DNA from: a virus
Taxonomy: Duplodnaviria > Caudoviricetes
DNA: 44,874 nt
Virus record (IMG/VR): IMGVR_UViG_3300016467_000490
Location: 1-44,874 of that record
Reading direction: 5' to 3' (one strand)
The notes beneath the pieces were generated by a model. The model ran no database searches and had not been told where the DNA came from. It saw nothing but the letters and a program-made list of their open reading frames with translations. How positions within the stretch are numbered: position 1 is the stretch's first letter; the number at the start of each line of letters is the position of its first letter. Below are positions 5,102 to 39,440 of the stretch, in pieces. The translations under genes and the position numbers were made by a program.

Positions 5102-6109
5102 TCAACCCACCTGATTTCCGAAGTTGTCATAAACATAGCCATCATCACCAAGGATGAGGCTGCCATCGCCCATTTCGCTGTCGTCTGGGCTTTCGATCAC
5201 GCCACCTTCGGCCTTGCCGAGCGTGCTGGTGTTGGAGCCGCCACTGGTTGCGTTGAAGATGCCCGCAAGTTGAGAAGGGTCTCCGCCGTTCATGACGGAC
5301 TGAATCACGGCAGCAAGTTGCGTGAGCTGCATCAACGGGCTGTTCGTGAAGTTGCCAGCCTGCCCAGGCTGAATTGATTGTCTCACTGTACCGGTTGGGA
5401 TTTGCTGCCCGCCAAGCAACCCAGAGTAGAACTTGGCCTGCTGCATGGGGTAGTCAAGTTCGGTCTGGGCTTGCTTCTGCTGAAGAGAGCCAAGATTGGA
5501 CAACGTCGTCAGCGCACCCGTGCCGACGTTCTGCTGGGTTTGGCCAAGCTGAGTCAGACCTTGGCCAGCCGTGATGCCTCGATTCAAGTCCGTCTGGGCG
5601 TTTTGAATGGCCTGCTGGTACTCATCCCCCAGCACTTTCATTTGGCGGCCATACAGGTCGGTGGAGATGTCTCGCAGCGCCTGGCCAGTGATGTTGGCCT
5701 GACGCTGAGAGCCAAAGTTTCCACTGGAAATTGCGCCGGCCTGGATGCCGGGCAACACGGTCTCCCTGACGCCTCGCTCTACAAGGCGACCCATCTCATC
5801 AGTGATGTACTTGTTGAATGGGTTCATGTACGCACTGGCGATCGCCGGCGCGCCCGTGTAGCCCGCCTGGGTCAGCATGTCCTGCGCGGTGCCAAGTGAA
5901 CCAGCGCCAGCGAAAGAGGTCTCGGGCGCCATGTTGAGCGCCTGCTGCTGCAGCGGGCTCAGGCCGGCCACGCCGCCCTGCATGACGGCGTTCTGACCAA
6001 GGTTGGTGACGTCCTGGAGGTAGTTGCTGTAAAACTCTGGGACAGTTGTCTGAGTCTGCTCGCCACTGATGGTTGCAGGAAGCGCGGCGCCTTGGAGTAG
6101 ATCAGCCAT
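5102..6109 (-). CDS. DNA transfer / pilot (ejection) protein
   Basis: Gln/Gly-rich, AYMNPF and SGNFGSQRQ motifs typical of podovirus ejection proteins; GGAGG RBS. Confidence 0.65.
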   Translation of the reverse strand: MADLLQGAALPATISGEQTQTTVPEFYSNYLQDVTNLGQNAVMQGGVAGLSPLQQQALNMAPETSFAGAGSLGTAQDMLTQAGYTGAPAIASAYMNPFNKYITDEMGRLVERGVRETVLPGIQAGAISSGNFGSQRQANITGQALRDISTDLYGRQMKVLGDEYQQAIQNAQTDLNRGITAGQGLTQLGQTQQNVGTGALTTLSNLGSLQQKQAQTELDYPMQQAKFYSGLLGGQQIPTGTVRQSIQPGQAGNFTNSPLMQLTQLAAVIQSVMNGGDPSQLAGIFNATSGGSNTSTLGKAEGGVIESPDDSEMGDGSLILGDDGYVYDNFGNQVG

Positions 6110-8798
6110 TTTTGGCCTCCTTCAGGTACGTCAGGGGTGACTTGGATTTGGGTGGAATTTTATTCAGCGGAGCCGACCGCTTGTGCTTGCGAACCTGCTC
6201 GCGGAACTTGTCCAGTAACTCGGCTCCGGCCTTTGTGGAGCCGTTGCCAAGCATTGACACCAGCTCGGCGTCGATCACGTACTCGCCGTCAGCCAGCATG
6301 GCCGGAATGTCATCAGACTGGCCGTCGCCGGCGCCGGTGACTCGAGAGCCTTCTCGGTAGTCGTGCCGACCTTGGACCACAGGCACGCCAGATTCCGGGT
6401 GCACAGCGCGGGTCAATCCGCCGCGCTTGCGCTCGATACCCAGGTTCTGGTACGGGTCCACAGGCGCACCGTAGGTGTAGTGCGTGAGGCCGCCGCTGGC
6501 CATGCCAGGCATCTTCATCGGCTGAGGCAGGGCGGGAGCGGGAGACGACTCGTATTGCTTGGAGTACCCGGGCACACCCAGGGCGGCATTCGTGGCGACC
6601 TGCTGCTGCGGCGCCATGGCTGTGGCCTCGCCAAGGGAGACCGTGCGAGCCGGACCCATTCCAAACGGAGTCGTGCGCGGAGCGATTTGCCCCACCTTGC
6701 TCATGTCGACACCCTTGTAGCTCTTGTCTGTGCCGCCACCCAAAACCTGCGACAGCAAGCCCGCCGTTACACCGCCCTGAATGATCGGGTTCTTGAGCAA
6801 AGTTCCGATTGAAGACAGCGGTCCCTTGCCAGCGGTGAATGCTTTTGAGATGTCCTCGCCAAGACGAGACAGAGAGAATGCATCGGGGACAACTTGATTG
6901 TTTTTGTCGTAGGTCGTCTTTTGGCCGCTGCGAGTGATCTCTTGCCTTGTGCCGTCTGGGTTGTAGACGGTTCTGACGATGTCAGTCGGCATGGCAAACT
7001 GCGCGGCAGCCTCGGGATCATCGCCGTTGAGGGCGGCCTCGCGAGCGTCATCCGTGATGTCGTAGCCGTTGGGGTCTGTGACCTTGACAATCTTTCCTTC
7101 GGTGTCGCGATAAATGTTGATCCCGTCAGGCGTTGTCTCTACGGTGCGGCCTTGGGCGTCAACAGCCCCGTCCCCGGCCCCGCCGCTGATGGTGCCGGTG
7201 CTGACCATGTCGCCAAATTCTCCGGCGTCACCGTAGTCTGCGGCATTCTCATAGTCGCCACCGCCCTCGTATTCGCTGGTGACGCCATAGTCACCAACGT
7301 CAGGCATGTCAGTGCTGCGAGCCTCCATTGCGACAGGCTCGTAGTCAGACGAGTAATCAATCCCGCTTGAATCAATCTCGCCAGCGTCAACCAGGCTGCC
7401 ATCCTCGAAACGAGGCAATCCATATTTCTTTTTCACTTTTGCAGTTCCCCCGTTTTTGAGGTGAGCCAAACCACCTTTTTTGCCAAAAAAATCACCCCAG
7501 TCGATCGAGTCCTCTGACTCTCCAGAATCAAAAGAGCCAAAGTCGAAGTCGTCATAGGAAGGGATGAAGCTGCCAAAGTCGATTTCATCAAAAGACGGCA
7601 GTTCGAAATAATCGCCAAGATCAGACAACGAAAGATCGCTGAAGTCAGGCAGATCAAATTCGCCAAAGTCAAATTGACTTGTGTCGAAATCGGGGATCAG
7701 GTCTGCGTACTCTCCGATGTTGATGTCGGGCAAAGACTCGACAAAGCTGCTGATGTCTTCGTCAGAAGAAAAGTCAGGCAGGTTTACACCGTACTCATTG
7801 AACGCGGACTCAAAATCAGACGTGACGTCTGTCAGCGATCCATCTGAGAGCTCGTACACATTGCCCGAGGTCTTGTCGTAGAAGAAATTGTCGCCAAGAT
7901 CGACGACATCAGGCTCAATGCCAAGATCGTTCGCAAGAGCAGTGTTGACGTCATCAACAGTTGCATCTGACTCTGCGTATTCGCCTTGCTGTCCCTCATC
8001 AGAGGCGACCTCTTCCGTCAGGTCCGGCTGCTCTTCTTCCGCAACAGTTGTGTCAGTCGGGTAATTGTTGAGATCATCAAACTCGCCAACCTCATCAGTT
8101 TGGTCTTGCAAATCCGTCTCATCCGTCTGCCCGATCTGATCTGTCTGATCGGTCTCTTCGGGCTGCTCTTCGCCCTGCTGGTCTGATGGCTCACCTCCTG
8201 CAACTCCTCCGCTCGTGGGCGCTTTTGTTGAAAGATTCTTTTGGGCTGCTGCTTTCAGTATTTGATTCAAAACAGACGCCGGCATTTTGGGCTTTTGCGC
8301 CCCAGGCTGGCTGGTTGGCTTTGACGTCAAAACCTCTTTCAGCTTGTTGAGCGCCATCGCGACGCCCGCCGATGCGGCGGCTGAGGGCGCCGACGACGCA
8401 GGCTTTTGTGCGGCAGGGGCACGGCCGCTCGAGCTAGAGCCGCCAGTCACCGCGTTGGCCACCTTGTCGACGATGCTGTCGCTCTTGCCACCAAGGATTT
8501 GATTCGCCACGTCCTTCGGCGACGATTCGCTCAAGCCGCCAAAAATAGCGGCCGCAGCCGCACCAAGGGCCGCTGCAGTTTTGGGGTCAAGGTTGGAACC
8601 CGATCCGGCCGGGTTGTATCCGGCGAGCATGTTGTACCCGGCACCGCTTCCTGGCGAGCGAATCGGGGACGCTGATGCCGCCGATGTGTTGGCCACGCTG
8701 GGCTGCTTGTATGCTGCGCGAGGAGCAACATCGGTCACCGCTTGCAGCGGGGATAAAAACAGCTTTCCTCGAGGAGTGGTGAAAGTGTTTGGTGGCAT
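6102..8798 (-). CDS. large internal virion protein with acidic tract and C-terminal tape-measure-type GDGQSDDIPAMLADGEYV domain
   Basis: 898-aa ORF, GAGGA RBS; low-complexity blocks separated by KKGG/KNGG/ASGG/KRGG motifs. Confidence 0.65.
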   Translation of the reverse strand: MPPNTFTTPRGKLFLSPLQAVTDVAPRAAYKQPSVANTSAASASPIRSPGSGAGYNMLAGYNPAGSGSNLDPKTAAALGAAAAAIFGGLSESSPKDVANQILGGKSDSIVDKVANAVTGGSSSSGRAPAAQKPASSAPSAAASAGVAMALNKLKEVLTSKPTSQPGAQKPKMPASVLNQILKAAAQKNLSTKAPTSGGVAGGEPSDQQGEEQPEETDQTDQIGQTDETDLQDQTDEVGEFDDLNNYPTDTTVAEEEQPDLTEEVASDEGQQGEYAESDATVDDVNTALANDLGIEPDVVDLGDNFFYDKTSGNVYELSDGSLTDVTSDFESAFNEYGVNLPDFSSDEDISSFVESLPDINIGEYADLIPDFDTSQFDFGEFDLPDFSDLSLSDLGDYFELPSFDEIDFGSFIPSYDDFDFGSFDSGESEDSIDWGDFFGKKGGLAHLKNGGTAKVKKKYGLPRFEDGSLVDAGEIDSSGIDYSSDYEPVAMEARSTDMPDVGDYGVTSEYEGGGDYENAADYGDAGEFGDMVSTGTISGGAGDGAVDAQGRTVETTPDGINIYRDTEGKIVKVTDPNGYDITDDAREAALNGDDPEAAAQFAMPTDIVRTVYNPDGTRQEITRSGQKTTYDKNNQVVPDAFSLSRLGEDISKAFTAGKGPLSSIGTLLKNPIIQGGVTAGLLSQVLGGGTDKSYKGVDMSKVGQIAPRTTPFGMGPARTVSLGEATAMAPQQQVATNAALGVPGYSKQYESSPAPALPQPMKMPGMASGGLTHYTYGAPVDPYQNLGIERKRGGLTRAVHPESGVPVVQGRHDYREGSRVTGAGDGQSDDIPAMLADGEYVIDAELVSMLGNGSTKAGAELLDKFREQVRKHKRSAPLNKIPPKSKSPLTYLKEAKNG

Positions 8799-8807: not shown

Positions 8808-11800
8808 TTACGTTGTCTTGCCCAAACCGAGAGCCTGGTTGAGCAGAGCGGTCTGGTATTGAGGCGTCGAATAAATCGACTGGTTTGCGGTTTGGTTTGC
8901 GGTTGGCTGCGCGGCCGCATACTGTGCCCAGCCCGTGTATGCACTTGGGTTGGAAAGAACGACGGGGGCGGGCTTGAACACGTTGGTTCCAGTGGATGTT
9001 CCTGTAGCCGGTATTTTCGTCGCACCGGTAACAGTTGCCAAGGGACTGGTGGTTGTGGTTGTGGCCGGCTTCCCGGCAATCGTGTTTAGGACGGACGTGA
9101 CCGCCGGCTTCACCGTGGTAGTCGGCGCCGGGGTGACAGCAGGCTTGGCCGCCGTCGCCTGGGCCAACGCACTCAATGGCGAGGTCGTCGGGGTCGTTGG
9201 GGCCGTCGGGGTCGTCGGGGTCGTCGGGGTAGTCGGCTTTGCAACCGGAGTCACCGGTCTCGTGCCCAGATAGCTCAAAACAGACGCCACGGCCGGTTTT
9301 GTCGGCGCCGTGGGCGTGGCTGGGGCTGTCGGCGTCGTCGGCTTCGTGGGGGTTGTCGGCGTCGTCGGAGTTGTGGGCTTCGTCGGCGTGGTCGGGGTCG
9401 TTGGCGTGGTGGGCGTTGTCGGCACGGTCGGCTTGACAGGGGTCGTGGGCGTCGTGGCCGGCTTTGTGCCAGAGAGAGCATCTGCCGCCTTTTGCGCGGC
9501 CGCCTTGGTGCTGAGGTAAGTGTTGTAGGACGACGGCGTGACGTAGCCCAGAGCCTTGGCGGCCTGCTGGGTCGCATAGTCGGTGAACCCGGCCTGCTTG
9601 GCGTAGAACTCCGTGGCCGGCGCCGTCCCGGCCGCAGCCATATCGGCGGGGCTCTTGAACCCAGCCATCTTTGCCTGCTGCGCAGCATAGTAGTCCGCCG
9701 CGTTGGTCTGGCCAGCCGCCTTTTGATCGGCATAGCTCATAAAGCCAGACTGCTGGGCATAGAAGTCCTGGGGGTTCAGCCCGTCGGCGGCAGTCATGTC
9801 TGCGGCATTCTTGAAGCCCGAGCGAGCTGCATAGAAGTCCGGCGCCGACGTGCCTTTGGCCGCCAGGTAATCGTTGGTGTTCAAGAAGCCCTTGGAGTAG
9901 GCCTCCTGCTGCGCGTAATACTGCTCCGCAGGGACGCCGTTTGCAGCAGCCTTGTCGACGGCAGTCTTGAAGCCCTGAGCCTGGGCCTCCTTGTCTCGGT
10001 AGAACTCCGTGGCGGACTTGCCCTTTGCGGCGATCATGTCCTGGTAATTGTCGAAGCCCAAAGCCGCCGAGTTCTGGGAACCGTAATACTCGTCTGCCGT
10101 CTTGCCGCCAGCAGCCTGCATGTCTGCATAGCTCCTGAAGTTTTTGGACGCTGCCAGCTTTTCATTGTTGTAAGTGGTGGCGTCTTGACCCAATGCGTTT
10201 GCAGCTCGCATGTCAGCAAAGGTTTTGAAGCCCTGTTGAGCTGCAGCCTTCTCGTTGTAGAAGTCGTAGGACGACATGTCCCCTGCGGCAATCTTGTCTT
10301 GCGCACTGTTGAAGCCGGCAATCTTTGCCTGGTAGTCAGCAGCGGTGTATGCGCCGATGCTTTTTGCCTTCTGTTGCTCGGCGTAATCGGTGAAGCCTTC
10401 AAGCTGAGCGTTTCTGTTGTTGTAGAAGGTTGTTGCATCAAGACCTTTTGCAGCCTGCTGATCCGCTGACGAATTGAAGCCTGCCTGCTTGGCGTAGAAC
10501 TCGGCAGACGTTGCGCCCTTTGCGGACTTTTGATCGGCGGCGTTCTTGAAGCCAAGAGCTTGCGCAGCAACCTCTGCTCGGTACTGAGCCGGCGTCATGC
10601 CCTTTGCTGCGGCCTGCTCTGCTGCGTTTGCATAGCCAGCCTTCACGGCGTAGTAGTCATCAGCGCCAAGGCCTCGATTTTTTGCGGCGGCCATGTCAGA
10701 TGCGGTCTTGAACCCAGACGCTTTTGCAGCCTTCTGATAGTAGAAGTCAGTCGGGTTCAAAGAGCCCGCCTCTTGCTGGTCTTCATACGTCATGAATCCA
10801 GCCTTCTTGGCGTAATAGTTCGGCGCCGTCGTGTTGGTCTTCAGAGCCTCCTTGAAGTCTGCAATGGCCTGATCTGGGGTGCCCTTGAAGCCATCATCGG
10901 CGGCATCTTTGTAGACGCCGTAGTATTCCGCCGCGTTGGCATAGCCCCTTATCTTTGCGACATCGTTGGTCATGCCCAATGACGATGCAGCCTTTTGATC
11001 CGACGCAGAGTTGAATCCAGCAAGTTGAGCGTAGTACTCCTGCGCAGGCAGGCCTTGCGCCTTGACGTAATCGGTCACATTGTTGAACCCGCCGTCCTTG
11101 GCCGCCTTTGCTGTGTAGTACGTGTTTGCATCCTGATTGGCAGCAGCAGCAAGAGCTTGATCGCCCGCGTTTTTGAACCCGGCTTGGGTTGCGCGATAGT
11201 CTGCGGCACTCAAGTCGCCAGCAGCAGCTCGCTCTGCTGCATCCTTGTACCCAAGGGACCGAGCGGTTTTTTCTGCGTAGTAGGTGTCCGCAGGTTGGTT
11301 GCCTGCTTCTTTTTGCTCTGACGCGTTTCTAAATCCGGCTTTGGTGGCGTAGTAGTCTTCGGTGTTTAGATTTTTTGCTTTTGCATCAGCATAGTCCGCA
11401 GCGGAGACAAATCCGGCATTTTTTGCAACTTCTCCATAGTACTGGTCTGGAGTTTTGTTGCCGGCAAGAGATCGGTCAACAGCATTGGCAAACCCCAACT
11501 TCTGAGAGTAGTAGTCAAGAGCACCAACGCCTTTTCTGACGGCGTCAAGGTAATCTTCTGCCGACATGAATCCCTTATCAGCAAAGGCTGCAGTATTTTT
11601 TTCAGCATTGAATTGCGCGGCAGTCTTACCTTGATTGGTAGCGTCAACTTGATCTTGAATGTTGGAAAATCCAGCTTTAGTTGCAGTAGCAATTTGATCA
11701 CCAACTCTGGGTTTTTTAGTTGTTGCATAGTAGCTTGCTGCATCACCGGTATATTTACGCTGCCAAGTTCCCTCATTTACCCACCCATACCTGCTTTGAA

Positions 11801-14306
11801 CCCGCTTGTAAACAATTTCTCCTGCGGTTGTGGCATCAACAAAATCTGAGTAGTTGCTGAACCCATTAGCGGCAGCAACTTTATAATTATTCAACTCTGT
11901 AGGGGTGTTTGCTTTAATCAAGCCTTGTGCGAGTAATGCGGCGCCGTTTTTGTAGTCATCAATTGAGTTATAGCCGGCATCGTAAACTGGCTTGTTGTTG
12001 TAGTACTCCACGGGACTATTCTGAAGCCCCTTTGTCTTTGCAGCGTTGTAATCCGCTGCGTTTTTGAATCCCCTTCTAGATGCATAGAAATCTGCGGCAG
12101 GAACATTTCCGGCAGCTTTCATATCAGAATCGCTGTCAAAGCCCTTGAGCGAAGCGTAGTAGTCAGGCGCAGTCTTCCCCTTTGCTGCAACGTAATCTGC
12201 CGCAGTTGCAAAGCCCTGCTTCTTCGCATAAAAATCATTTGCCGGCTGACCTGCGGCTTCCTTCATGTCGGCTACGGTTTTGAAGCCAAGCTGTTGAACG
12301 TAGAAGTCATCAGGGGCTCTGCCCGCTGCCGCCTTTTGATCGGCGGCATTCTTGAAGCCCGCCTGTTGGGCGTAATACTCGGCGGCCGATGTCACGCCTT
12401 TTGCTGCGCCAGCCGCTTGATCCGATGCGTTCTTCCATCCAGCCCTGGAAGCATAGTAGTCCTTGGCGTCAGAAATGCCCTTTGCTGCTGCGTCAGCGGC
12501 ATCATTCCCGTTCGTGAAGCCCTTTTGCTTGGCGTAGTAATCAACAGCCTTGGCGCCCTTGGCATCAACAAAATCGCCGTATGTCTTAAAGCCGGCATCG
12601 GTGGCTCTTTTGTTGTTGTAAAAGTCGGTTGCACTGGTGCCGGTTTCTTGCGCCTTTTTCCAATCTTCGGCTCTGGTAAATCCAGCTTTCCTGGCGTAGT
12701 ACAGATCAGCCTCGGTGCCCTTTGCAGCCGCATAGTCGGCGGCATTTTGGAACCCGGCGGCCTTTGCCGTTTTGTCGGCATAGTAGGCCGTCGAGTTCAT
12801 GTTCAATGCCTTGGCAGCATTCTGATCGTCGACGTTGGTAAAGCCCTCCTGCTTGGCGTAGAAGTCAGGAGCGGCAGCGCCTTTTGCTGCCGTCATGTCT
12901 GCGAACGTCTTGAAGCCAGCGTCGACCGCTCTCTTTTCGTCCGCAGCCTTCTGAGTTTCGGCTTCCGTTTTTGCCTGCGTGACAATCTTGTCGACTGCGG
13001 TTTTCTGGAGATCAAGAGCAGATGTCTTCAACGCACCTTCGTATTTGACGACTGCTTCAGAAATTTTGTTGATGATGTCTCGCTGCTTTTGGTTCAGCAG
13101 GTTGACCTGGTTGACAGAAAGATTGATGTCTTTGTACAGACCGTCGTAGGTTGCCTGCGCATCCTTGAAGGCTTGAGCCTTTGTCTTGAAGGTGTCAACG
13201 GTGGTTTTGTACGCAGTGTCCGCCTCTTCAGACTTCTTCTTCAGCTCGTTTGTCTTTGCAAGCAACTCATCAGCAGACCAATACTTCGGCTGTCCGTTCT
13301 CGTCCAGGGGCATCGTCTTCATGATCGCCGCATAACGAGCGGGATCATTCTTTTGAAGCGAAGGAAGAATGTTCTTGACGATGTTCTCGTAGCCGGCAGC
13401 GGCATCTCCGTTGCCGTAGCTCTGAGCAAGCCTCTGCGTTTGGCCAGTGAGGTCGGCCATCTTGATGTAGTCATTGCGGGTCTTCATTGCCTCAGACAAT
13501 TTTTGCTGGGCATCAGTCTGCAATGTCTTGATTTCTTTGATGGCGTTTGGATCGCCCAAAACGCTGTTGGCGTAGAACTGGGACGCCTTCAGTTTTGCGT
13601 CGTTTGCCTGGGCATATGCAGCGTTCAGCAGCGACTGGTTGTTGATCTGCTGACCGGTCAGGTTCTCAATCGTGTTGCCAATCGCAACGGCCGCAGCAGA
13701 AGAGGAAATTGCCTCGCTCAGTGGCTTGCCCTGAAGAACTTGCTTCAGGGTTTGGTCTGCAACTTCTCCAAGATAGTTGTCGTCCTTCAGGGACACGCCA
13801 GCAGAAGTCAGGGCGCTCTTGAGAGAGCCAACCATGGCCCCCTTTGCTCCAGCCTCAAGGATGTCCTGAAACGATCCGCCCTTCAATGCAGCCATGGCGG
13901 CTTCTGGCGTTGCGCTGCTGACGACCGAAGACACCAGGTCTTTTGCGGCCCTGTCAAGGCCAGACATCAGGTCGGACTTGGACAGAGCGCCAGATACACC
14001 GCTTGACACCGCGCTTGCAAGATACTGGGTCGCGGCAGCAAGTGCAATTTGCTTGATGTCGCCGCCATTCAATGCGCTCACAGCGGCGTTGGCAAGAACA
14101 GGCGGAACACCCAGAGAGATCAGAGCCAAAGTCTCAAGGACCGGCAGCGGATTCTTCGCAATGTTTTGCGCAACACTTCCAATCGTGCTGAACGTGTCGG
14201 CCACAAAACCTTTCGCCGCACCCAAAATTCCGCCGCTGCCGAGCAGACTGTCATCACCGCCAAAAACGGTGTCCCAAACAGCTCCGCCAATTTTGCCGAG
14301 AATCAT
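8808..14306 (-). CDS. very large repeat-rich virion protein (1832 aa)
   Basis: uninterrupted ORF; hydrophobic Ala/Gly N-terminus, coiled coil, ~40 GF...YYA repeats, Pro/Thr tail. Confidence 0.75.
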   Translation of the reverse strand: MILGKIGGAVWDTVFGGDDSLLGSGGILGAAKGFVADTFSTIGSVAQNIAKNPLPVLETLALISLGVPPVLANAAVSALNGGDIKQIALAAATQYLASAVSSGVSGALSKSDLMSGLDRAAKDLVSSVVSSATPEAAMAALKGGSFQDILEAGAKGAMVGSLKSALTSAGVSLKDDNYLGEVADQTLKQVLQGKPLSEAISSSAAAVAIGNTIENLTGQQINNQSLLNAAYAQANDAKLKASQFYANSVLGDPNAIKEIKTLQTDAQQKLSEAMKTRNDYIKMADLTGQTQRLAQSYGNGDAAAGYENIVKNILPSLQKNDPARYAAIMKTMPLDENGQPKYWSADELLAKTNELKKKSEEADTAYKTTVDTFKTKAQAFKDAQATYDGLYKDINLSVNQVNLLNQKQRDIINKISEAVVKYEGALKTSALDLQKTAVDKIVTQAKTEAETQKAADEKRAVDAGFKTFADMTAAKGAAAPDFYAKQEGFTNVDDQNAAKALNMNSTAYYADKTAKAAGFQNAADYAAAKGTEADLYYARKAGFTRAEDWKKAQETGTSATDFYNNKRATDAGFKTYGDFVDAKGAKAVDYYAKQKGFTNGNDAADAAAKGISDAKDYYASRAGWKNASDQAAGAAKGVTSAAEYYAQQAGFKNAADQKAAAGRAPDDFYVQQLGFKTVADMKEAAGQPANDFYAKKQGFATAADYVAAKGKTAPDYYASLKGFDSDSDMKAAGNVPAADFYASRRGFKNAADYNAAKTKGLQNSPVEYYNNKPVYDAGYNSIDDYKNGAALLAQGLIKANTPTELNNYKVAAANGFSNYSDFVDATTAGEIVYKRVQSRYGWVNEGTWQRKYTGDAASYYATTKKPRVGDQIATATKAGFSNIQDQVDATNQGKTAAQFNAEKNTAAFADKGFMSAEDYLDAVRKGVGALDYYSQKLGFANAVDRSLAGNKTPDQYYGEVAKNAGFVSAADYADAKAKNLNTEDYYATKAGFRNASEQKEAGNQPADTYYAEKTARSLGYKDAAERAAAGDLSAADYRATQAGFKNAGDQALAAAANQDANTYYTAKAAKDGGFNNVTDYVKAQGLPAQEYYAQLAGFNSASDQKAASSLGMTNDVAKIRGYANAAEYYGVYKDAADDGFKGTPDQAIADFKEALKTNTTAPNYYAKKAGFMTYEDQQEAGSLNPTDFYYQKAAKASGFKTASDMAAAKNRGLGADDYYAVKAGYANAAEQAAAKGMTPAQYRAEVAAQALGFKNAADQKSAKGATSAEFYAKQAGFNSSADQQAAKGLDATTFYNNRNAQLEGFTDYAEQQKAKSIGAYTAADYQAKIAGFNSAQDKIAAGDMSSYDFYNEKAAAQQGFKTFADMRAANALGQDATTYNNEKLAASKNFRSYADMQAAGGKTADEYYGSQNSAALGFDNYQDMIAAKGKSATEFYRDKEAQAQGFKTAVDKAAANGVPAEQYYAQQEAYSKGFLNTNDYLAAKGTSAPDFYAARSGFKNAADMTAADGLNPQDFYAQQSGFMSYADQKAAGQTNAADYYAAQQAKMAGFKSPADMAAAGTAPATEFYAKQAGFTDYATQQAAKALGYVTPSSYNTYLSTKAAAQKAADALSGTKPATTPTTPVKPTVPTTPTTPTTPTTPTKPTTPTTPTTPTKPTTPTAPATPTAPTKPAVASVLSYLGTRPVTPVAKPTTPTTPTTPTAPTTPTTSPLSALAQATAAKPAVTPAPTTTVKPAVTSVLNTIAGKPATTTTTSPLATVTGATKIPATGTSTGTNVFKPAPVVLSNPSAYTGWAQYAAAQPTANQTANQSIYSTPQYQTALLNQALGLGKTT
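9180..9460 (-). repeat. degenerate 9-bp tandem repeats encoding (PTT/PTK/PTA)n linker
   Basis: GTCGTCGGG-type units; translation PTTPTTPTTPTKPTTP. Confidence 0.8.
9480..12940 (-). repeat. ~40 degenerate 24-32 aa protein repeats
   Basis: consensus xGF(K/N)(N/T/S)AAD(Q/Y/M)xAAxGxxAx(D/E)(Y/F)YAx; about 42 GF/GY anchors counted by eye. Confidence 0.85.
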
Positions 14307-28974: not shown

Positions 28975-28985
28975 GATGTGCCTCC

Positions 28986-29479: not shown

Positions 29480-30394
29480 TTAGACGCCCGGAGTGCCGTA
29501 CATGGCACGCCAGTCGGTGAAGCCGACGTCGTAACGCTCGGTGGCCTTGTAGCGCATCGAGTCGGTCTCGAAGTCGCCTTCCATGGTCTTCTCGAGCTTG
29601 CGACGCATCAGGAGCTTCATGCCCTCAGGAGCATCGGTCTGAACCCACCATGCGGTGGCGCTGGACAGACGAGACAACACGGTGGCGCCTTCGTCCAACA
29701 GGCCGATGGCTTTCACAGGGTTGATGTCGTTGTTGGCAGTGCCAGTACGCAGAACGGACTTCAGCAGCACTTCGGCCTGGAAGATGTTGCCAGGAGCGAC
29801 CACCAGTTGGCGGGGCACCAGACGAATCTTCTTGCCGTTGTTGTCCACAGCCTGGCGAATCTGGATCAGCATCTGCTCCAGGGAGGTCTGCGACAGGTTC
29901 GCTGCGGTGGCCAACAGGTTGCTGGCGGTACCGTTCACGATCGGATGGCTGGCGCTGTTCAGTTGAACACCGTCACCACCGGGGTATGCGCTGTTGAAGG
30001 CGCGGTTCAGCACGTTGGCGCACAGCGTCTCTTTCGTCTCAATCAGCGACTGAGCGAGGTGACGGGCGTACACCTGGCCAATACGGATGTGGTCACCGTC
30101 CTCGACCAAAACCTTGGTCAGAGCGAACGCCAGACCATAGACCTGGTAGACGTAGCGCTTGAGGAACAGCACACCACCTTGTTGGTACGTAACCGGCATG
30201 CCGTCAGGCAGTTGCGGAGCAGCACCAAAACCGTAGAGCACAGGCTCTTCGTGGTAGTTGCGGGGGATGCCTTGCTGTTCGCGGAAAACACGCGACCATT
30301 CGTCGGCACGTTGGTCATAGACTCCATCGAAACACTCGTTGAGGATGGGCTCAACAATTGAACGAAAGTCTGTACTGCGCATTGGAGCGGCCAT
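29480..30394 (-). CDS. major capsid protein (Mu gpT-like family)
   Basis: 304 aa; GFGAAP...G..V.Y, A.VLN.AF....GGDG..L....HP, LVV.P, DF.T...RYKA.ERY..G..DWR..YG.PG. Confidence 0.9.
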   Translation of the reverse strand: MAAPMRSTDFRSIVEPILNECFDGVYDQRADEWSRVFREQQGIPRNYHEEPVLYGFGAAPQLPDGMPVTYQQGGVLFLKRYVYQVYGLAFALTKVLVEDGDHIRIGQVYARHLAQSLIETKETLCANVLNRAFNSAYPGGDGVQLNSASHPIVNGTASNLLATAANLSQTSLEQMLIQIRQAVDNNGKKIRLVPRQLVVAPGNIFQAEVLLKSVLRTGTANNDINPVKAIGLLDEGATVLSRLSSATAWWVQTDAPEGMKLLMRRKLEKTMEGDFETDSMRYKATERYDVGFTDWRAMYGTPGV

Positions 30395-31596: not shown

Positions 31597-32568
31597 TCAG
31601 TATTTAGAGGTTTCAGAAGCGTACCGCTTGATCATGCGATTACGCGCAACGGGATCGTCCCACATGCCCGCATCCTTCATGGCTTGAACCTGTTCCCGCG
31701 AAAGCTGGAACTGGTTCGGGCTTGAAGCACCCGAGCTTGTTTGTCGTCCTGAGCCTGTAACCACCGTTCTTGGCCTCGAAGTTTGTGTGTTTTCACTACC
31801 CACGCCACCAGTATAGCGGTGGGGCATCATTCTTGACAAGCGGTTGTCAAGTTCTTGCCAGTATTCCGGCGTGCGGGGGTCGTAACCCTCGTCCGACAGA
31901 ATGACGTCCTCGTTCAAAACGCGTCGCGAGTCGGCGTCACGCCCTTGCGGGTCGTACCAACTGTTTCGGGCGAGCCAATCGGCCGCCTGGCGCTGCACGT
32001 CGGGGTCAACCGCCGGCGCGGCGGTCTGAGGACGCTGAGGTTTTGCCGCGCGCTGGCGCATGACTTTGAGACTTTCCAGGGTTTTGCTGGACTCAACCAG
32101 CAAATCCTGGGCGCTCACCATCAATTCGCCGTTTCCGGTCTCGGCAGCCTCTTTGATCTTCTCTTTTGCGAAGTTAATGCGGTGCTCTTCCTCCGCAATC
32201 TTGTTGTCCATGCGCGCCAGGTCGGTCGCCAGGGTCTTTTTCTCGACCACGGCGAGCCGCTCGAGCAGCTCACGGTTCTGACGCTCCAGCAAATTGAGCT
32301 TCACGTCCTTTTCGTTGGACACCTGGCGGTGATATTCCTTGCGAGCCTTGCGTTTTGCGCGGCGAGCCTCGCGTTCGGCCTCACGGTCAGGGTCAATACT
32401 GCCTGTTGCGGCAATTTCAGCGCGCTGCGCGGCCGCATCATCCTCTTCGCTGCCGTCTTGGTCGGGCAACTTGATGGATTCGGGCAGCGCAACGATGGCA
32501 GAGCCATCGGCAGCCTCGTTCACGACGATTTTTTCGTCGACTTGTTCGGTGTTGGTGTCAGTGGTCAT
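31597..32568 (-). CDS. capsid scaffolding protein
   Basis: acidic N-terminus, long coiled coil, W..RN.WY, GYDP...EYW.ELD.R, LS.EQV..MK..G C-terminus. Confidence 0.7.
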   Translation of the reverse strand: MTTDTNTEQVDEKIVVNEAADGSAIVALPESIKLPDQDGSEEDDAAAQRAEIAATGSIDPDREAEREARRAKRKARKEYHRQVSNEKDVKLNLLERQNRELLERLAVVEKKTLATDLARMDNKIAEEEHRINFAKEKIKEAAETGNGELMVSAQDLLVESSKTLESLKVMRQRAAKPQRPQTAAPAVDPDVQRQAADWLARNSWYDPQGRDADSRRVLNEDVILSDEGYDPRTPEYWQELDNRLSRMMPHRYTGGVGSENTQTSRPRTVVTGSGRQTSSGASSPNQFQLSREQVQAMKDAGMWDDPVARNRMIKRYASETSKY

Positions 32569-33005
32569 ACGAATGCCTTCACGTCAAGTGGATTGCCAGT
32601 GATTTTGGCGATCAGTTCGTGGTCGTTGAGGACCATGAACAGGACTGGGTCTTCATCGTCAGCAGCTCCGGGGACCGGAACCTCCCAACGATCACCACCC
32701 CACTTGGGCACACGCACGAAGTCGCCGACTTCGCACCAAATCCCCTCTACCCATGGCTCCATGGTGTCGCGCTTTTTGAACGCGAGCGGGCCCAGCTCGA
32801 TCACTTTGGCCACCATGTTCTGCCACTTCTCGGTCTCACGGGTCTCTTCGACCAAAATGATCCCGCCAGAGGAGGTTTTCTTCTTCACGCGGCGCAGTTG
32901 CACGAGGACTCGTGCGCCAAGAGGTTTAGCCCCGGGGTCTAAAGCAGGAAATGCATCCCGCACATCAGCTTCTGAAAAAGCTACCGGTTCATTCATCTTC
33001 ATCAT
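32565..33005 (-). CDS. groES: co-chaperonin GroES-like protein
   Basis: KPLGARVLV...KTSSGGIIL...VIELGP...WCEVGDFV...LND.E.IA; alternative start at 32996. Confidence 0.85.
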   Translation of the reverse strand: MMKMNEPVAFSEADVRDAFPALDPGAKPLGARVLVQLRRVKKKTSSGGIILVEETRETEKWQNMVAKVIELGPLAFKKRDTMEPWVEGIWCEVGDFVRVPKWGGDRWEVPVPGAADDEDPVLFMVLNDHELIAKITGNPLDVKAFV

Positions 33006-33174: not shown

Positions 33175-33347
33175 GCGTTCTTCTTGTCGATGGCCGACTT
33201 TTCAAAGTTGCCGTGGTCGCTGTTTGCTCGCGGAAGGGTCGCTGATTGCTTCTCTGTTAGCTCTTCTCCGTCAACCCAGGCGCCCGCAGCCATGCGGCGG
33301 TGCTGGTTCACGGTCTCATCCAGTTGTTGTTTGTCAGTGTCTGCCAT
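33171..33347 (-). CDS. hypothetical protein, 58 aa (not in ORF track)
   Basis: AGGAGG RBS, MADTDKQQLDETVNQHRRMAAGAWVDG...; ATGA-coupled to next gene. Confidence 0.7.
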   Translation of the reverse strand: MADTDKQQLDETVNQHRRMAAGAWVDGEELTEKQSATLPRANSDHGNFEKSAIDKKNA

Positions 33348-35838
33348 AGTTTCCTCCTAATAGGTTGGCTTGGGCGGCGTCTTGCAACGCAATTGCGGTG
33401 TCCTGCTGCTCTCGCTTCAGTTTCACCTCTTCCACAGTCAGGTCCGCAGTCTTCATGCGCTCCTTCGTGAGGTTGTTTTCGGCGTTCATGGCGACGCGAA
33501 TCTCTTGATCCTTCGCCTTGAGCTGAATGTCTGCCTGATCGCGAGCCTGGCGGCGCTGTGTTTCGGCCATGGAGGCCTGCAAAATGGCCAGCGCATCGCC
33601 GTCCATGGGCGGCTGAGGCTTGGGGAACTGCTGCATGATCTGGCCAATCTGCTCCATCGCCTGCATGACGCCAGCAAAGACCTGCTGTGTGTCCATTTTG
33701 ACGTGGCTCGCGGCTGCTGCCATGGCCTGATCGACCTTGTCGACGTTCTTGTTCTCGGCGTACTTGCCCAACTGCAGGTCGGTGCCGGCCGTGACGTACG
33801 TCTTCATCTGCTGCGTGTACCACAGCGTGATGTGCTGCTTGAGGTGCTCGAGTACTTGCGGCAGGAAAGTCGGCCCCATGAGCTTGCTCGAGCCCAACAT
33901 GGGGTCCAAAGCAAAGTCCAGGTGGGCCTGGATGTGCGCCAGGTGGTCTTGGCGGGGGTACGCAAAAGCGCGGCGACCCAGGGCCATGGATGCGTTCTCG
34001 TCGGCCGCGTCCATTTCGGCGGGCTTGCTGCTCTGGGGCATCAGCTCGTCGACGTTGGGCACCTTGATCTGCTTCATGATCCGCTGCAGCACGGCGTTGA
34101 TGTCGAACGACTGCGGGTACTGCGTGGCCAGTTGCAGCACGGCCTGGTTCTGGGCCATGCGCTGCGTCTCGCTGAAGATGTGCGGATCGCTGACCGGGAT
34201 GACATCGGTGTTCTGGCGGAAGTCGTCAGGGCTGATCGGCAGCTCGGCAACCAGGTCACCACGGCGCTGCTCGTTGAGGTACCAGCGGTTGATGCGCGAC
34301 ACGATTTGCAGTGCACGCTTTTGCGACTTGTGGACCCGGGCGTGGATCGAGCTGAACACCTTGGCGCCTTGCTCGATGAGGGCCTGCGTGGTGCCCACAG
34401 GCGTGTTGGAGTTCAAGTCCTTGATCTTCTCCTCGGCGGTGCTCACAACGCCCTTGGCGGCCCCATCCAGCCAGCCAAGGAGCTTGAACAGCACCTCGCT
34501 GGGCGGGTTGAACGGCATGGGCATGGCCACCTTGCGGATGTCATCCACACCTGGGCCAGCCTCGATCTCGGTGACCTGCGTGATTTCGATCTGCTGGCTC
34601 TGGCCAGAGATTTTGGCGCCCTTGAGCTTCAGCGCGGTAAGCGAGTTGTTAACGTGCGCAGTATCCAGGAGGGCACGTAGCGCACCAGTAAGAGCGGCTG
34701 CGAGTCCGCCGATGAGGTGAGGTAACCCAATGGCGTAAGCGCCTCGCCACGGGATGAACTTGTACTCGACGATCCAGTCGAGCTTTGTGAGAGTTTCATC
34801 TCCCTGCTCCCAGTTGCGATACAGACCAAGCACTTCCATGTCGACCGAGTCGATCATGAGGATGTACGGGGCCAGCTTGCCGCCGCTGTGGCTATCCTCT
34901 TCGACCTCGAGCCAGGTGTAGATGTGGTACATGCGGCGCAGGCCGTCTTCGTTGCCCACCCACTCGCGGCCCTCGATCTTGTTGTTGGCCTTCTCGGCGG
35001 CGCTCTCTTCGGGCTCCATGCTGGCGAAGATCGAATAGCGCGACTCCTTGTACAGGCCGCGATTGACGCGCTGCTTGAACTCGAACTCGGTGATGTCATC
35101 GATCTCGGTCACTCGCTGCGCGGTGTAGAAGTTGGCCGCAGCGAACGGCAGCAGGATGTTGTCGATGGGCACGAACTCGGCGCACGGGCGCTTCTTGTTG
35201 TCATCCCACCAGAACTTCATGTACTGCGAGCCACCCAGCGGCAACTGCGTGAAGAGCTGCTCCTGCTCGTCCTGGAACTCTTCGATCTGCTCAGTGAGCT
35301 GCCAGTTGAGATAGTCGCGCTTGCGCTCGGCACGCTCGACCTTCTCGTCCGTCTGGTCGCCCAGGATGCGGGTGCGCACCGGGCCGTCGGGCGGGAACAG
35401 TTCTTTGGTGGTGGCGGCAGCGAAGTCGACACACGCCTCGGCCATCACGGGGTGCACCACCTTGCTGGCACCAGCGAAGGATGCGCCACCAGGCGCGTCG
35501 TCACCCAGGCCAGTGCGGCGGATGCCCTCTTCGTACTGCTTGTCGCGGCGCTTTCGGGCCTCTTTGTCGTCCTTGATGAGGTCCATGTACCGCAGAGCGA
35601 TCTTTTGCAGCTCGCCCTGGTTGAAGACCTCGGCCAAGTTGTCGTAGAAGTCGGTCTCTTCGGTCGGGCCAACGCGTTCTGAGCCAGGCAGCGTGACAGT
35701 CGCGGAGCCGTCCTCGTGCTCCTCGACTTCCGGCTCCTCCTCTTCGCCCATCTCGACCAAAGCCCCGCCATCGGGCAGGTCAGTGATCCCCTGGACGAAT
35801 CGTCCGTACTCCTGTTCGATCGGCATCTCAGTGGCCAT
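33334..35838 (-). CDS. portal protein
   Basis: 834 aa; GAS.V.HP.MAEA.V.F.A....EL.P..GPV, LPL.GS...K, PVGTT.AL.E.G.KV.S.IH.R.H motifs; downstream of terL. Confidence 0.88.
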   Translation of the reverse strand: MATEMPIEQEYGRFVQGITDLPDGGALVEMGEEEEPEVEEHEDGSATVTLPGSERVGPTEETDFYDNLAEVFNQGELQKIALRYMDLIKDDKEARKRRDKQYEEGIRRTGLGDDAPGGASFAGASKVVHPVMAEACVDFAAATTKELFPPDGPVRTRILGDQTDEKVERAERKRDYLNWQLTEQIEEFQDEQEQLFTQLPLGGSQYMKFWWDDNKKRPCAEFVPIDNILLPFAAANFYTAQRVTEIDDITEFEFKQRVNRGLYKESRYSIFASMEPEESAAEKANNKIEGREWVGNEDGLRRMYHIYTWLEVEEDSHSGGKLAPYILMIDSVDMEVLGLYRNWEQGDETLTKLDWIVEYKFIPWRGAYAIGLPHLIGGLAAALTGALRALLDTAHVNNSLTALKLKGAKISGQSQQIEITQVTEIEAGPGVDDIRKVAMPMPFNPPSEVLFKLLGWLDGAAKGVVSTAEEKIKDLNSNTPVGTTQALIEQGAKVFSSIHARVHKSQKRALQIVSRINRWYLNEQRRGDLVAELPISPDDFRQNTDVIPVSDPHIFSETQRMAQNQAVLQLATQYPQSFDINAVLQRIMKQIKVPNVDELMPQSSKPAEMDAADENASMALGRRAFAYPRQDHLAHIQAHLDFALDPMLGSSKLMGPTFLPQVLEHLKQHITLWYTQQMKTYVTAGTDLQLGKYAENKNVDKVDQAMAAAASHVKMDTQQVFAGVMQAMEQIGQIMQQFPKPQPPMDGDALAILQASMAETQRRQARDQADIQLKAKDQEIRVAMNAENNLTKERMKTADLTVEEVKLKREQQDTAIALQDAAQANLLGGNYGRH

Positions 35839-35884: not shown

Positions 35885-36187
35885 ATGGAATCGCATGCCA
35901 AGCGCACCAGAGCGCAGTACCCCTACGTTGTCGAGCCCTTTGGCTCGCAATGGCAGGTGCTGCTTGTTCGCGCCGAACCCCCCGAGAGGGTTGCTGTCTT
36001 CAAGGATCGGCCGCGTGCGTTTGCTCATATGCGCCAGCTCAATCGAGAATGGTGGACTGAGCTTCACGCGCTTGACGAGGCGCGGCTTGCGATTGCCCGA
36101 GCTCGCGGAAAAGCCGCTGCTCAGCCCGCTTCAGTCGCTCCCGCATCGCTTTGGACGCGGCTGAGGGCTCTCTTGCGCCTTCGGTAG
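35885..36187 (+). CDS. small antisense protein (100 aa), probably leaderless
   Basis: fills a 200-nt gap in an otherwise gap-poor operon; promoter directly upstream; overlaps 3' end of 36039..39440 by 149 nt. Confidence 0.55.
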   Translation: MESHAKRTRAQYPYVVEPFGSQWQVLLVRAEPPERVAVFKDRPRAFAHMRQLNREWWTELHALDEARLAIARARGKAAAQPASVAPASLWTRLRALLRLR

Positions 36188-39100
36188 CGTAGTCGCTGCG
36201 GGGCATGTACATCAGGTCACGCCCCTGCTCGGCCTTGCCGTACTGGAACTTGGCGTCTTTGCCCAGCACCGCCTTGGCCACGGACTGCGCGTCCAGGAAC
36301 TCGTTGGGGATGCGCCCCTTCTGGTAGTCGAACGGGGCGATCACCACGCCACCCAGGCGCGGGTTGTGGGCCACGATCATGCCAGGCAGGCGCTCGCCCA
36401 GCATCTTGACCTGCTCGTCGGTCAGCGGGCCGTTGCCCTTGATCAGCATGGCGCTGGCGTCCTTGATCTGGTTGGTGGCCATAGGCACGAAGCGGTGCGC
36501 AGCCATGGCCTCCTGGCCCAGCTCCTGGCCGGCGGTGGCGATGTCGGCGCGCAGAGCCTTGTTCTTGCTCAGGTCGCCGGCGCGCGGCACGTCAACGGCC
36601 ACCAGCGGGTTGGTCTCGAGCTGGCCGGCCTCGTTCTCGTACACGCCCTGGCCGGCTCGCTTGGTCGTACGGCGTCCGCCCATGGTCTCCATGGACACCG
36701 GCGCGCCCTCACCAGTCAGGCGGCGGGTGGCGGTTTCCTGCCACTGGCGCGGCTTGTACTTGGCCAGGTCCGGGGCCACGGCCTCGACCGTGATGGTGGC
36801 CGGGGTCATGGGGCGGCGGGCGGCGGCGGCCAGCGTGTTGAGGGCGGACTCGCCGGCACGGGCGGCCTTGGGCAGCGCCTTGGGCAGCTTGGCGGCCCCT
36901 TGCATGGCGCCGGCAGGGGACGGCAGCGACAGCAGCGTCTCCATCATCGGGCGCTCTTCGTCCGTGGTCATGCCGTACTCGCGCATCAGGTCACGCAGGT
37001 GCTCGGAACCCAGCGTTGGGCGCTCGGAAGCCAATCGGTTACCGACTCGCTTGCCACTCGCTAGATCGCGGGCAGCATCGACGCCCTCGAGGCCCATGTT
37101 GATGAGGTCGACGGGCAGGCCGGCCAGGGAGGCGACGATGCCACGGTTGGCCAGGTCGGTCAGGGCGCGGGGCTTCTTGAGGGATTCGATCTCCTCTTTG
37201 CCTTGGGCCTTGGCCATGCGGGCCAGGGCTTCGGCCATCAGGCGGGTCATGCTCGGCTCCTCTGAGCCCAGGTCGCTCTGGTCAACGGCCAGGCCGCCAC
37301 CGTCGAAGTGCTGGATGAGGCCGCCGTGGGCCTCGTTGATGTCCGGGCTGTTCACGTCGTACGTGCCACGGTTGCCGGTCTCGGACTTGATCTTCTTGGG
37401 GTCGAAGATGCCCAGGTTCTTGGAGTCACGCTCGCTGGTGTAGTAGGCGTCGTGACCGAGCTGTCTGATCAGCTTCTGAATGTCGGGGTGCTCAATCGAG
37501 GCCCAGTTGTTGGTCATGCCGCCAGAGTCGTCCACGCCTGCGATGGCGTCCAGCTCGTACTGGATTTCCTTGTTGCCAGGGAATCGCTTGCTGGCCGCTT
37601 CGCGAATCGCCTTCATGTGCTCGCGGTTGTCGTAATCGAATGGGTTTCTGACCTGCACCCGAACCGGCATGACGTTGGGGCCATGGTGGCCGCTGGAGTT
37701 GATGGCCCAGTCGCCGGCGAAGTCAGGGTCTGGCGAGACGAATGTGCCCTTGTGGCCAGGGAAAAAGTTTTTGATGTCGCCCTTGGTGCCGTGGTAGAAG
37801 CGGCGTTTGTCCTTGGACTCGGCCAGGAACTTCTCGAGGTTGGCCTCACGCTTCTCTGCTGGCAAGATTTTCTGCGTGCCCTTGAGTGCGGCATTGGCCT
37901 CCTCTGAGGCTTTGGCGATTGCCTTGGCGGCCTTGGCCCAGCCGCCGCCAGCGTAGCCCTCTTCGACGTGGGAGTTGATGGAGTCCAGGATGCCGTCGAG
38001 GTCGACGCCCTCGGTCGTCTCGACCTGCTGCTCGGGCTGCATGGTGTAGCCCAGGGCGTTGAGGCGGTCCTCGATGTGGAACGGCACGTTGTCAGGTGCC
38101 TGAAAGGCTGCGCCACCGTCGGCGAATGAGTCGTCGTCGGTCACGGCTCTGCCGGTGTCCTTCTTGCGCAGCTCGTCCTTGCGCAGCTCCATGTCGCGTT
38201 TGCGCACGCCGCCGCCACGACGCATCTCGGCAGTCACCTCGCCGCCGTCCTTCTTCTTGAGGTAGTCCTTGCCTCGCAGCATGTCCTCCATGACCTCGCG
38301 CGGACTCTTGCCGGTGATCTCGGCCGTGCGGCGAATCATGCGCTCGAGGTTGTCGACGTACAGCTCGGGCTTGGTCTTGAGGGCGGTCACGTCGGCAGAG
38401 CCATACCAGCCCAGCGCCTGGGCTTCGGCCGGGGCCATGCCGTGGCGCTTGGCACCACGTTGCCACAGGTCTTCAAAGCCCGCATACTCGGACCCAGACG
38501 GGGCGGCCTCCCAAAAGCCAGGGCGTTCTTTTGCCTGCTTGAGGGACATCTGGCCGGACTCGACGGCCTTGCGGGGGAAGTGCTCGCCCGTCACCTTGCC
38601 GGTCACCGGGTCTTTCTCCACCACCTTGGACGTGAGCCAGCGCGGATCACCGCGCTCGATGATGGGGCCGCGCACCGCGTTGACGTCGACGGTCACGGGC
38701 TTGAGGTTGCCCAGCAGGTTGCGGTAGAACGTGCCCAGCTTGGCGTTGGGCGGAAGTGCGCCCTCGAGGTCGCCGGCCGCGATCTGCTTGCCGCGCTTGA
38801 AGATGTCGCTCTGGGCCAGGGAGCCATACCCGGGCGGCAGCTCGATGGCCGTGCCGGCAGGGCGCTCGCCCTTCTTCAGCTTGTTGGTCAGCAGGTATGC
38901 GTCCTCGGGGAGCTGGCCTGTCTGGCTCAGGTGCCACAGGTACGAGCCCATCAGGTTCTGCTGGTCGACCGGGTTGCGCTGCGATGCGCTGGCCATCTGG
39001 GCCATGAAGTCGTTGAACTGCTTGGGGGTCAGGCCGATGTCCATGGCCACCTGGCGCAGAGGCTCGGTGCCGTACCACTCACGCATGCCCAGCTCTTCAC

Positions 39101-39440
39101 CCTTGGCGATCAGCTTGTCGATCTTCTTGCGGGCGGTCGGGCTGTCGAGCAGGTCTTGCATCCGCTCGGTGTACTTGGGCTTTTCGCCTGCCGCCCGGGC
39201 CTTGTCGACCATCGGGATGCGGGGCAGGTCTTCTTGTGCGATGCCCGGGGTGTACATGCCCTGCGATCTGGGCATCAGGGGCAGGCCGGTCCCCTGGGGC
39301 GTGGTCATCGGGGGAGTCTTGGCGGCCAGGGCTTCCTCGAGCTTGGCGGCCTTTTGGGCTTCGATTGCTGCCTCGGCCTCACGCTTGGCCAGTTGCAGTG
39401 CGCTGACGACCTTGCGGCCTGTGGTCAGTGGATCACTCAT
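36039..39440 (-). CDS. large polyvalent protein: N-terminal helical glycosylase-like domain + ART-PolyVal-like ADP-ribosyltransferase + unknown C-terminal domain
   Basis: FYHGT...F.SPDPDFA...NVMPV.V...NPFD...GHDA...FDPKKIKS..GN.GTYD...PDI at ~37335-37810; WY...KLG.FY.NL.G...VTVD...P.EAQA.GW at ~38300-39100. Confidence 0.75.
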   Translation of the reverse strand: MSDPLTTGRKVVSALQLAKREAEAAIEAQKAAKLEEALAAKTPPMTTPQGTGLPLMPRSQGMYTPGIAQEDLPRIPMVDKARAAGEKPKYTERMQDLLDSPTARKKIDKLIAKGEELGMREWYGTEPLRQVAMDIGLTPKQFNDFMAQMASASQRNPVDQQNLMGSYLWHLSQTGQLPEDAYLLTNKLKKGERPAGTAIELPPGYGSLAQSDIFKRGKQIAAGDLEGALPPNAKLGTFYRNLLGNLKPVTVDVNAVRGPIIERGDPRWLTSKVVEKDPVTGKVTGEHFPRKAVESGQMSLKQAKERPGFWEAAPSGSEYAGFEDLWQRGAKRHGMAPAEAQALGWYGSADVTALKTKPELYVDNLERMIRRTAEITGKSPREVMEDMLRGKDYLKKKDGGEVTAEMRRGGGVRKRDMELRKDELRKKDTGRAVTDDDSFADGGAAFQAPDNVPFHIEDRLNALGYTMQPEQQVETTEGVDLDGILDSINSHVEEGYAGGGWAKAAKAIAKASEEANAALKGTQKILPAEKREANLEKFLAESKDKRRFYHGTKGDIKNFFPGHKGTFVSPDPDFAGDWAINSSGHHGPNVMPVRVQVRNPFDYDNREHMKAIREAASKRFPGNKEIQYELDAIAGVDDSGGMTNNWASIEHPDIQKLIRQLGHDAYYTSERDSKNLGIFDPKKIKSETGNRGTYDVNSPDINEAHGGLIQHFDGGGLAVDQSDLGSEEPSMTRLMAEALARMAKAQGKEEIESLKKPRALTDLANRGIVASLAGLPVDLINMGLEGVDAARDLASGKRVGNRLASERPTLGSEHLRDLMREYGMTTDEERPMMETLLSLPSPAGAMQGAAKLPKALPKAARAGESALNTLAAAARRPMTPATITVEAVAPDLAKYKPRQWQETATRRLTGEGAPVSMETMGGRRTTKRAGQGVYENEAGQLETNPLVAVDVPRAGDLSKNKALRADIATAGQELGQEAMAAHRFVPMATNQIKDASAMLIKGNGPLTDEQVKMLGERLPGMIVAHNPRLGGVVIAPFDYQKGRIPNEFLDAQSVAKAVLGKDAKFQYGKAEQGRDLMYMPRSDYATEGAREPSAASKAMRERLKRAEQRLFRELGQSQAAPRQAREAQSTILD

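Follow-up and report, generated by a model that had tools for sequence, protein, structure and literature searches.

Why do late proteins of one phage genome, which at first sight have little in common, share a short glycine-rich motif, and what reads it? The motif was noticed in the virus record IMGVR_UViG_3300016467_000490, and the window referred to throughout is this whole record of 44,874 bases. Based on Pfam and PHROGs searches, its minus strand carries, in order, terminase, the 1133-aa gene, portal, Cpn10, a predicted scaffold, capsid genes and small basic genes, followed by genes for adaptor, fibres and lysis, then a nozzle-like gene and five large genes, the last of which encodes the SLT protein. 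No tail tube or tape-measure gene was recognised in the record, which is 79% complete by estimate; adaptor, nozzle-like and ejection genes are found instead, and this gene content points to a short-tailed virion. The capsid protein is 89.5% identical to that of a Manatee Spring record, 76.6% to that of Caulobacter phage RW, the nearest cultured relative found, and 39.6% to that of Pelagibacter phage HTVC023P. No solved-structure relatives were found for the capsid protein (MCP), the portal or the 335-aa protein.

For comparison, 80 capsid-anchored and 80 end-domain-anchored IMG/VR loci were collected, being the best 80 of 597 and the best 80 of 585. A longest-ORF script supplied their genes, with dereplication at 90%. 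The loci are closely related to one another (capsid 90–96%), and counts by gene slot are not independent events. The Cpn10 (GroES-like) gene between portal and scaffold (32565–33005) is retained throughout the family. A motif-free 1832-aa gene of low GC (about 52%) without Pfam or PHROG match occupies 8808–14306, and its slot encodes 330 to 1660 aa in relatives. Three relatives (L124, L140 and L150) have an additional 152-aa gene between the 898-aa and 335-aa slots.

The motif is enriched in the window

The copies lie in six open reading frames:

36039–39440, minus strand: 1133-aa pre-portal polyvalent protein with modules A, B and C; six copies between modules
27403–28989, minus strand: 528-aa basic protein (pI 10.2; ATG at 28974); 14 copies at nt 27406–28914
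26448–27068, minus strand: 206-aa basic protein; two copies, which flank a Pro-rich spacer, with a small N-terminal module before them and a basic tail with final Trp after them
26050–26454, minus strand: 134-aa fusion protein; 50-aa module (phrog_16028) and DUF6321 with one joining copy (nt 26284–26304)
6102–8798, minus strand: 898-aa acidic protein, predicted ejection or cargo protein; four copies (nt 7484–7440 and 6503–6411)
5102–6109, minus strand: 335-aa predicted DNA ejection protein (PHROG 4287, E 4.5e-5); one copy, K-A-E-G-G-V-I (nt 5195–5215)

An earlier note on this DNA had listed about 28 copies, and all 28 are present in these frames. The pattern it gave, [YFMKR][AKR]xGG, fits 21 of them; the other seven deviate at the first position (L, G or E) or at the second (C or D). 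Over 44 proteins (14,524 aa) the pattern yields 27 matches, one of them overlapping. Within-protein shuffles give an expectation of 4.9 (maximum 14 in 5000), or of 9.8 with GG held as a unit (maximum 23 in 2000 shuffles). The proposed enrichment is present in the window, in a test that is partly circular because the pattern was taken from the same window. With GG kept, the 528-aa (p 0.0005), 1133-aa (p 0.004) and 206-aa (p 0.015) proteins are significant singly and no other motif protein is, so that the claim for the 898-, 335- and 134-aa proteins (p 0.13–0.28) depends on relatives.

The motif had been described as absent from portal, terminase, MCP, scaffold and fibres. The window's own scaffold indeed lacks the full motif, but the 766-aa fibre has a single chance-level match, the MCP has YQQGG, and scaffolds of relatives carry the motif (24 of 51). 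Single chance-level matches also occur in the nozzle, the SLT protein, a 357-aa protein and a 93-aa protein. Two motif-like strings are conserved, YQQGG at residue 70 of the capsid protein (29480–30394) and FRDGG at residue 41 of the 93-aa protein (27074–27355), and both were excluded as likely structural turns.

The motif spans seven residues, [YFMLK]-[AK]-x-G-G-x-[VA]. A profile built from 1180 copies reads M/Y/L/F/K, then K or A, any residue, two Gly, any residue, and V or A. Codons differ among the copies, so selection acts on the peptide, and a DNA repeat is ruled out as its origin. Chance or composition is likewise ruled out by the shuffle tests in the window and the relatives.

The motif keeps to fixed gene slots in relatives

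Relatives were counted with a pattern stricter than that used for the window and with a GG-preserving expectation. The 528-aa slot holds 554 copies versus 75.8 expected, spread over all 65 dereplicated relatives; the 898-aa slot 182 versus 24.1 (67 of 67 relatives); the pre-portal slot 122 versus 21.3 (36 of 38); and the 335-aa slot 44 versus 8.9 (37 of 51). Other late slots fall below expectation: one copy versus 6.0 in the portal (43 relatives), none versus 0.7 in terminase (17), none versus 7.1 in the nozzle (41), two versus 6.5 in the fibre (55), two versus 12.1 in the 567-aa predicted ejection protein (58), one versus 12.1 in the gene preceding the 898-aa protein (61) and three versus 5.8 in the SLT protein (22). 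These shortfalls are suggestive only, since the loci are closely related. Collectively, the motif is real and has fixed gene slots in relatives.

In the 335-aa slot (5102–5200 in the window; L088–L167), a conserved Tyr/Asp/Gly C-terminal element of about 17 residues lies downstream of the motif, and in a few relatives a basic tail replaces it.

Copies mark the joints between modules

The modules of the 1133-aa protein are A (residues 10–399, DUF7178), B (505–715, ART-PolyVal) and C (704–1133), and the motif copies in its gene lie at nt 38255–37935 and 37334–37287.

37362–37802, minus strand: ART-PolyVal domain, residues 547–693 (Pfam PF18760, E 1.3e-9)

The copies at residues 396–496 separate module A, which is shared with relatives, from the ART module, and those at 703 and 712 precede the last module, as the earlier note had claimed. 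The placement also recurs in homologues: internal alignment ends fall within 12 aa of a motif 124 times versus 45 expected in the pre-portal slot and 547 versus 213 in the 898-aa slot. In one relative (L007) the module order is B-A-C, versus A-B-C in the window, and the borders coincide with motifs (at 216, 610, 663 and 693). ART-PolyVal, PcfJ, LPD23 and DUF7178 are each present or absent depending on the relative (30 of 38 pre-portal slot proteins scanned), so this slot near the head genes holds several unrelated effector domains in variable order. Judged by its sequence, the pre-portal slot reads as a changing polyprotein whose modules are permuted and fused at the motif. The ART-PolyVal domain is predicted, from the function of its family, to be an injected effector against the bacterial host.

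This arrangement resembles the phage polyvalent proteins, which, in the accessible part of their description, likewise combine ART-PolyVal, LPD23 and PcfJ in changing order, and for which processing by a HEXXH metallopeptidase was proposed (Iyer et al. 2017, PMC5512222). Unlike many polyvalent proteins, in which a zincin-like HEXXH processing domain is common, though not universal, the 34 late proteins of the window contain no HExxH. The words 'glycine' and 'tape measure' do not occur in the accessible text of that paper.

About six modules of 45–85 aa make up the small basic genes; they are joined in many orders, and nearly every joint carries a motif. For DUF6321, GG lies just upstream in 36 of 36 fusions versus one of nine stand-alone genes. 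Several small stand-alone genes have the motif near the C-terminus, followed by a tail with a final Trp. Most small basic proteins in the slot 26050–27068, and in the same slot of L006–L085, end in Trp, often after a basic tail; this Trp may be a further signal or reflect overlap with the ribosome-binding site that follows.

The 528-aa protein, predicted to be an internal head protein or a source of basic peptides, has its final copy two residues from the C-terminus (sequence end GGKA), and the last GG is 2–4 residues from the end in 49 of 60 complete relatives. Its C-terminal residue is Cys in 47 of those 60 (e.g. L006–L085), mostly as GG, one to three residues and C. Motif doublets are frequent, with 77 of 160 short spacings measuring 8–10 residues.

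31597–32568, minus strand: 323-aa predicted scaffold, role assigned from position and composition; degenerate site at residues 52–58

In the 24 predicted scaffolds of relatives that carry the motif, it lies within the first 120 aa (1.4 expected) and never beyond. The predicted scaffolds of these relatives and the predicted internal proteins share one motif.

The same peptide is cut in the T5 tape measure

The tape measure pb2 of phage T5 is cut after R1127, as determined by intact-mass MS (Linares et al. 2023, PMC10038345). This bond lies in the sequence R|AEGGMM, with a G-E-H-G-x-E module after it. In its 1219 aa, pb2 contains three X-[AK]-x-GG sites, and across four T5-like tape measures of 32–39% identity R-A-x-G-G and two Glu do not vary. 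The window contains the same peptide as K-AEGGVI and K-AEGGAI, its motif matches the X-A-x-G-G-x-hydrophobic of the scissile bond, and a small Glu-rich module comes immediately after the T5 site. The second residue is Lys in 49% of the 1180 copies and Ala in all four T5-like sites. Unlike the window, with about 28 copies on six predicted head proteins, T5 has one site in a tail protein. The cut may be made in cis or by a separate enzyme, and the accessible text of the T5 paper does not describe the motif (PMC10038345).

Lambda gpH offers a second comparison. It is processed to gpH* and gpHC with a loss of ~14 kDa, and the accessible part of a 2025 paper states the cut site and catalyst to be unknown (PMC12617516). 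In gpH, the copies S-ASGG (717), F-ATGG (733) and Y-ATGG (778) lie around a G-E-F-V module. The C-terminal piece has been put at ~14 kDa; the motif predicts 14.1 kDa for a cut at 717 or 12.5 kDa for one at 733, and the values for sites 706 and 710 are 14.8 and 14.6 kDa.

The third comparison is gp45 (cargo protein C1) of crAss001, a podovirus cargo protein with copies between modules and at the C-terminus. Seven copies follow residue 200 (206, 260, 329, 370, 424, 559 and 825, the last near the C-terminus), and 19 dereplicated homologues retain such copies. The portal-bound density, present in 12 copies on the portal, was modelled as residues 425–552, and a tail-bound part, 214–245, lies 420 Å from it (PMC10172136). 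Residue 425 is the Ala of N|AFGG, so that the portal-bound domain starts at a motif copy, and 214–245 is flanked by the copies at 206 and 260. The start of the model could also reflect order beginning there. The authors read gp45 as continuous, and 'cleav' is absent from the accessible text; the four gp45 MS regions given in it span no motif site (PMC10172136). In the crAss001 MALDI peak lists (the accessible part of PMC6235969, supplement 8), nine tryptic and one predicted semi-tryptic mass of gp45 were sought in 13 bands: the sole match was weak (1278.72 in band 7, 0.11 Da off), the trypsin control was present, and neither full-length gp45 nor a 15-kDa piece was seen. Unlike the window, the other scanned late proteins of crAss001 lack such a motif series. 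A cut of JBD30 at 1066 is a prediction and was not used as evidence.

Since the motif is the same peptide as the mapped T5 cut site, we favour cleavage: the motif is probably a maturation cleavage signal, X|[AK]-x-G-G-x-[VA], cut before the second residue. The earlier note had proposed either a loading signal or a mark for polyprotein cleavage. The junction placement and conservation it expected are borne out, and the T5 site speaks for its second option. The motif is hardly ever present in two predicted ejection proteins or in the gene preceding the 898-aa protein, which makes it unlikely as a loading address common to all cargo. The cut would lie before Ala or Lys and not at GG, where the earlier note had expected new termini. 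A cut after GG, as made by ubiquitin-like and adenovirus proteases, is disfavoured, since the T5 cut precedes Ala.

A conserved acidic domain as candidate enzyme

No protease family was found in the 46 ORFs of the window by Pfam or PHROGs, in agreement with the statement of the earlier note that no prohead protease is recognisable. That note had also called the six proteins unrelated and left the reader of the motif unnamed. The proteins are not wholly apart from a reader: at the C-terminus of the 898-aa protein lies a conserved domain, a candidate reader, with a variant of the motif as its first strand.

6105–6401, minus strand: 99-aa C-terminal end domain of the 898-aa protein; first strand a motif variant (nt 6339–6359)
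33334–35838, minus strand: portal (phrog_1216), motif-free and included for context; the end domain is predicted to dock on it

The end domain is found in 15,218 clusters at E≤0.001 and has no Pfam match at E≤10, including the family crAss_CARG1 (PF25725). In an alignment of 143 sequences, Asp30 is invariant and Glu40 nearly so. Ser29 varies, and a Ser nucleophile was therefore rejected. In the Douge tape measure (8zdo), a module that begins Y-A-x-G-G is its homologue (E 9e-7). Profile comparison gave E 0.58 with T5 pb2C, an hhalign E of 0.058 with crAss C1 (PF25725) and a weak score with lambda (E 0.0026, probability 11%); lacking a profile match to the first two, the proposed kinship with the cut proteins is one of motif and acidic pattern judged by eye, and the homology to C1 is putative. 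An atlas link to crAss_CARG1 (0.85) is a lead only. Models from 36 and 143 sequences had mean pLDDT of 61.5 and 72.8, with an acidic core below 65 and unfolded in both. With this low-confidence core, Foldseek returned no match at E≤0.001 and the best VIA hit had Z 4.2.

The motif tracks the domain. Among 11 records or part-records, motif-bearing late proteins are present in all seven that have the end domain, and the four that lack it have zero or one match; in RW and HTVC104P, the protein with the domain is the sole one to have the motif. A more distant set contained 33 proteins with the domain, of which 30 carry the motif (35 copies versus 9.9 expected).

Further features of the domain vary among relatives. 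In HTVC104P (L174, gp81) it is encoded by the gene that immediately follows the portal, and this protein has a motif at its residue 10. It is tandemly duplicated in some relatives (L004, MW202545.1, a 639-aa gene; several of P0060–P0150), as in the Douge tape measure. One clade (about half of L180–L254) has a degenerate first strand, Ala for Ser29 and one motif copy elsewhere in the protein.

By analogy with crAss001, the end domain may dock on the portal. Its position, co-occurrence with the motif and conserved acids make it the likeliest candidate enzyme, a tentative assignment for a domain with a poorly modelled core and no fold match. An alternative protease was sought in a 179-aa head gene, for which the atlas search returned unnamed clusters alone.

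Discussion

Under the cleavage reading, precursors with the motif would be built into the prohead and cut there into separate pieces, namely ART and other effector modules, short basic peptides of the 528-aa protein and trimmed ejection proteins; in many relatives the scaffold would also be clipped. Passage through the portal would be easier for small pieces, and a motif would offer a place where new modules could be fused on. The enzyme might, at a modest chance, be the acidic end domain, seated on the portal like the crAss001 C1 domain. Cleavage explains why the motif stands at fusions yet not in stand-alone forms, why scaffolds, the classic protease substrates in T4, carry it, why other internal proteins show a shortfall, and the cut in T5. 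The fit is poorer for the terminal copies and the 8–10-residue doublets, where cuts would release merely tiny peptides, and for the tails of motif and Trp.

These last features keep alive a different role for the motif, that of an uncut docking tag. Each copy would add a strand to the end domain, or to a different head protein, and cargo would thereby be drawn to the portal, with the 528-aa protein as a multivalent organiser. Terminal and tandem copies suit such a tag, as do the motif-plus-tail ends of small stand-alone genes, the motif-variant first strand of the end domain, which is poorly modelled alone, and the 12 portal-bound copies of crAss C1. Against it, stand-alone DUF6321 lacks the motif in eight of nine cases, the predicted ejection proteins of 567 and 595 aa are nearly without it, scaffolds have it, and T5, the sole mapped example, is cut there. 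We regard docking as less probable than cleavage but worth retaining for the terminal copies, doublets and Trp tails; it can be combined with cutting if the new N-termini stay bound.

A motif without a reader, acting as a flexible turn or hinge and as a recombination seam for module exchange, is unlikely. In its favour, turns with GG occur widely, the folded MCP and the 93-aa protein conserve similar strings, and tandem copies could be swap scars; yet the motif is confined to four or five slots with a shortfall in equally Gly-rich neighbours, and it has specific flanking residues, varied codons and the T5 cut. A host enzyme that cuts the motif, or modifies its Lys or Gly, during assembly or after injection is very unlikely: a 1973 paper by Zweig and Cummings reportedly names host involvement in T5 tail-protein cleavage in its title, and no phage protease is recognised in the 46 ORFs, but the motif occurs in phages of Escherichia, Bacteroides, Caulobacter and Pelagibacter alike, and in the 11 records its presence follows that of a phage domain.

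Cleavage at the motif would resemble the prohead-protease systems of T4 (gp21), phiKZ (gp175) and SPN3US (gp245), in which, as far as the accessible sources describe them, a short motif is repeated on scaffold, internal and ejection proteins. Those enzymes cut after Glu and are recognisable serine proteases. Unlike in T4 (gp21), phiKZ (gp175) and HK97 (gp4), no prohead protease was found in the window and the capsid protein has no leader; MCP matches to protease-capsid families cover the capsid part alone. Capsid-targeting peptides such as the T4 CTS and encapsulin tags are one terminal tag on every cargo, sufficient for loading, whereas here many copies are internal and some predicted cargo is untagged.

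Motif-directed maturation of head proteins is already known, and the T5 cut is published. In the literature covered, outside which most subscription papers lie, we found no description of this motif, nor of a GG signal linking tape-measure maturation to head cargo. Taken as a whole, it is a speculative proposal that the end domain is an unrecognised phage protease cutting X|[AK]-x-G-G, which would be the missing catalyst of lambda and T5 tape-measure maturation and would sit on the portal of crAss-like and HTVC023P/RW-like podoviruses, there serving a head-wide processing code for scaffold, basic core protein and shuffled effector polyproteins. The proposal offers exact bonds in lambda (717 or 733), crAss001 gp45 (206, 260, 329, 370, 424, 559 and 825) and Caulobacter phage RW gp66 (495), and names Asp30 and Glu40 of the end domain as candidate catalytic residues. 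If it is true, the head- and tail-separated parts of crAss001 gp45 need not belong to a single threaded chain, and in a very abundant group of aquatic phages, estimated at about 3000 stretches in IMG/VR, the giant genes could be read as lists of separate injected proteins.
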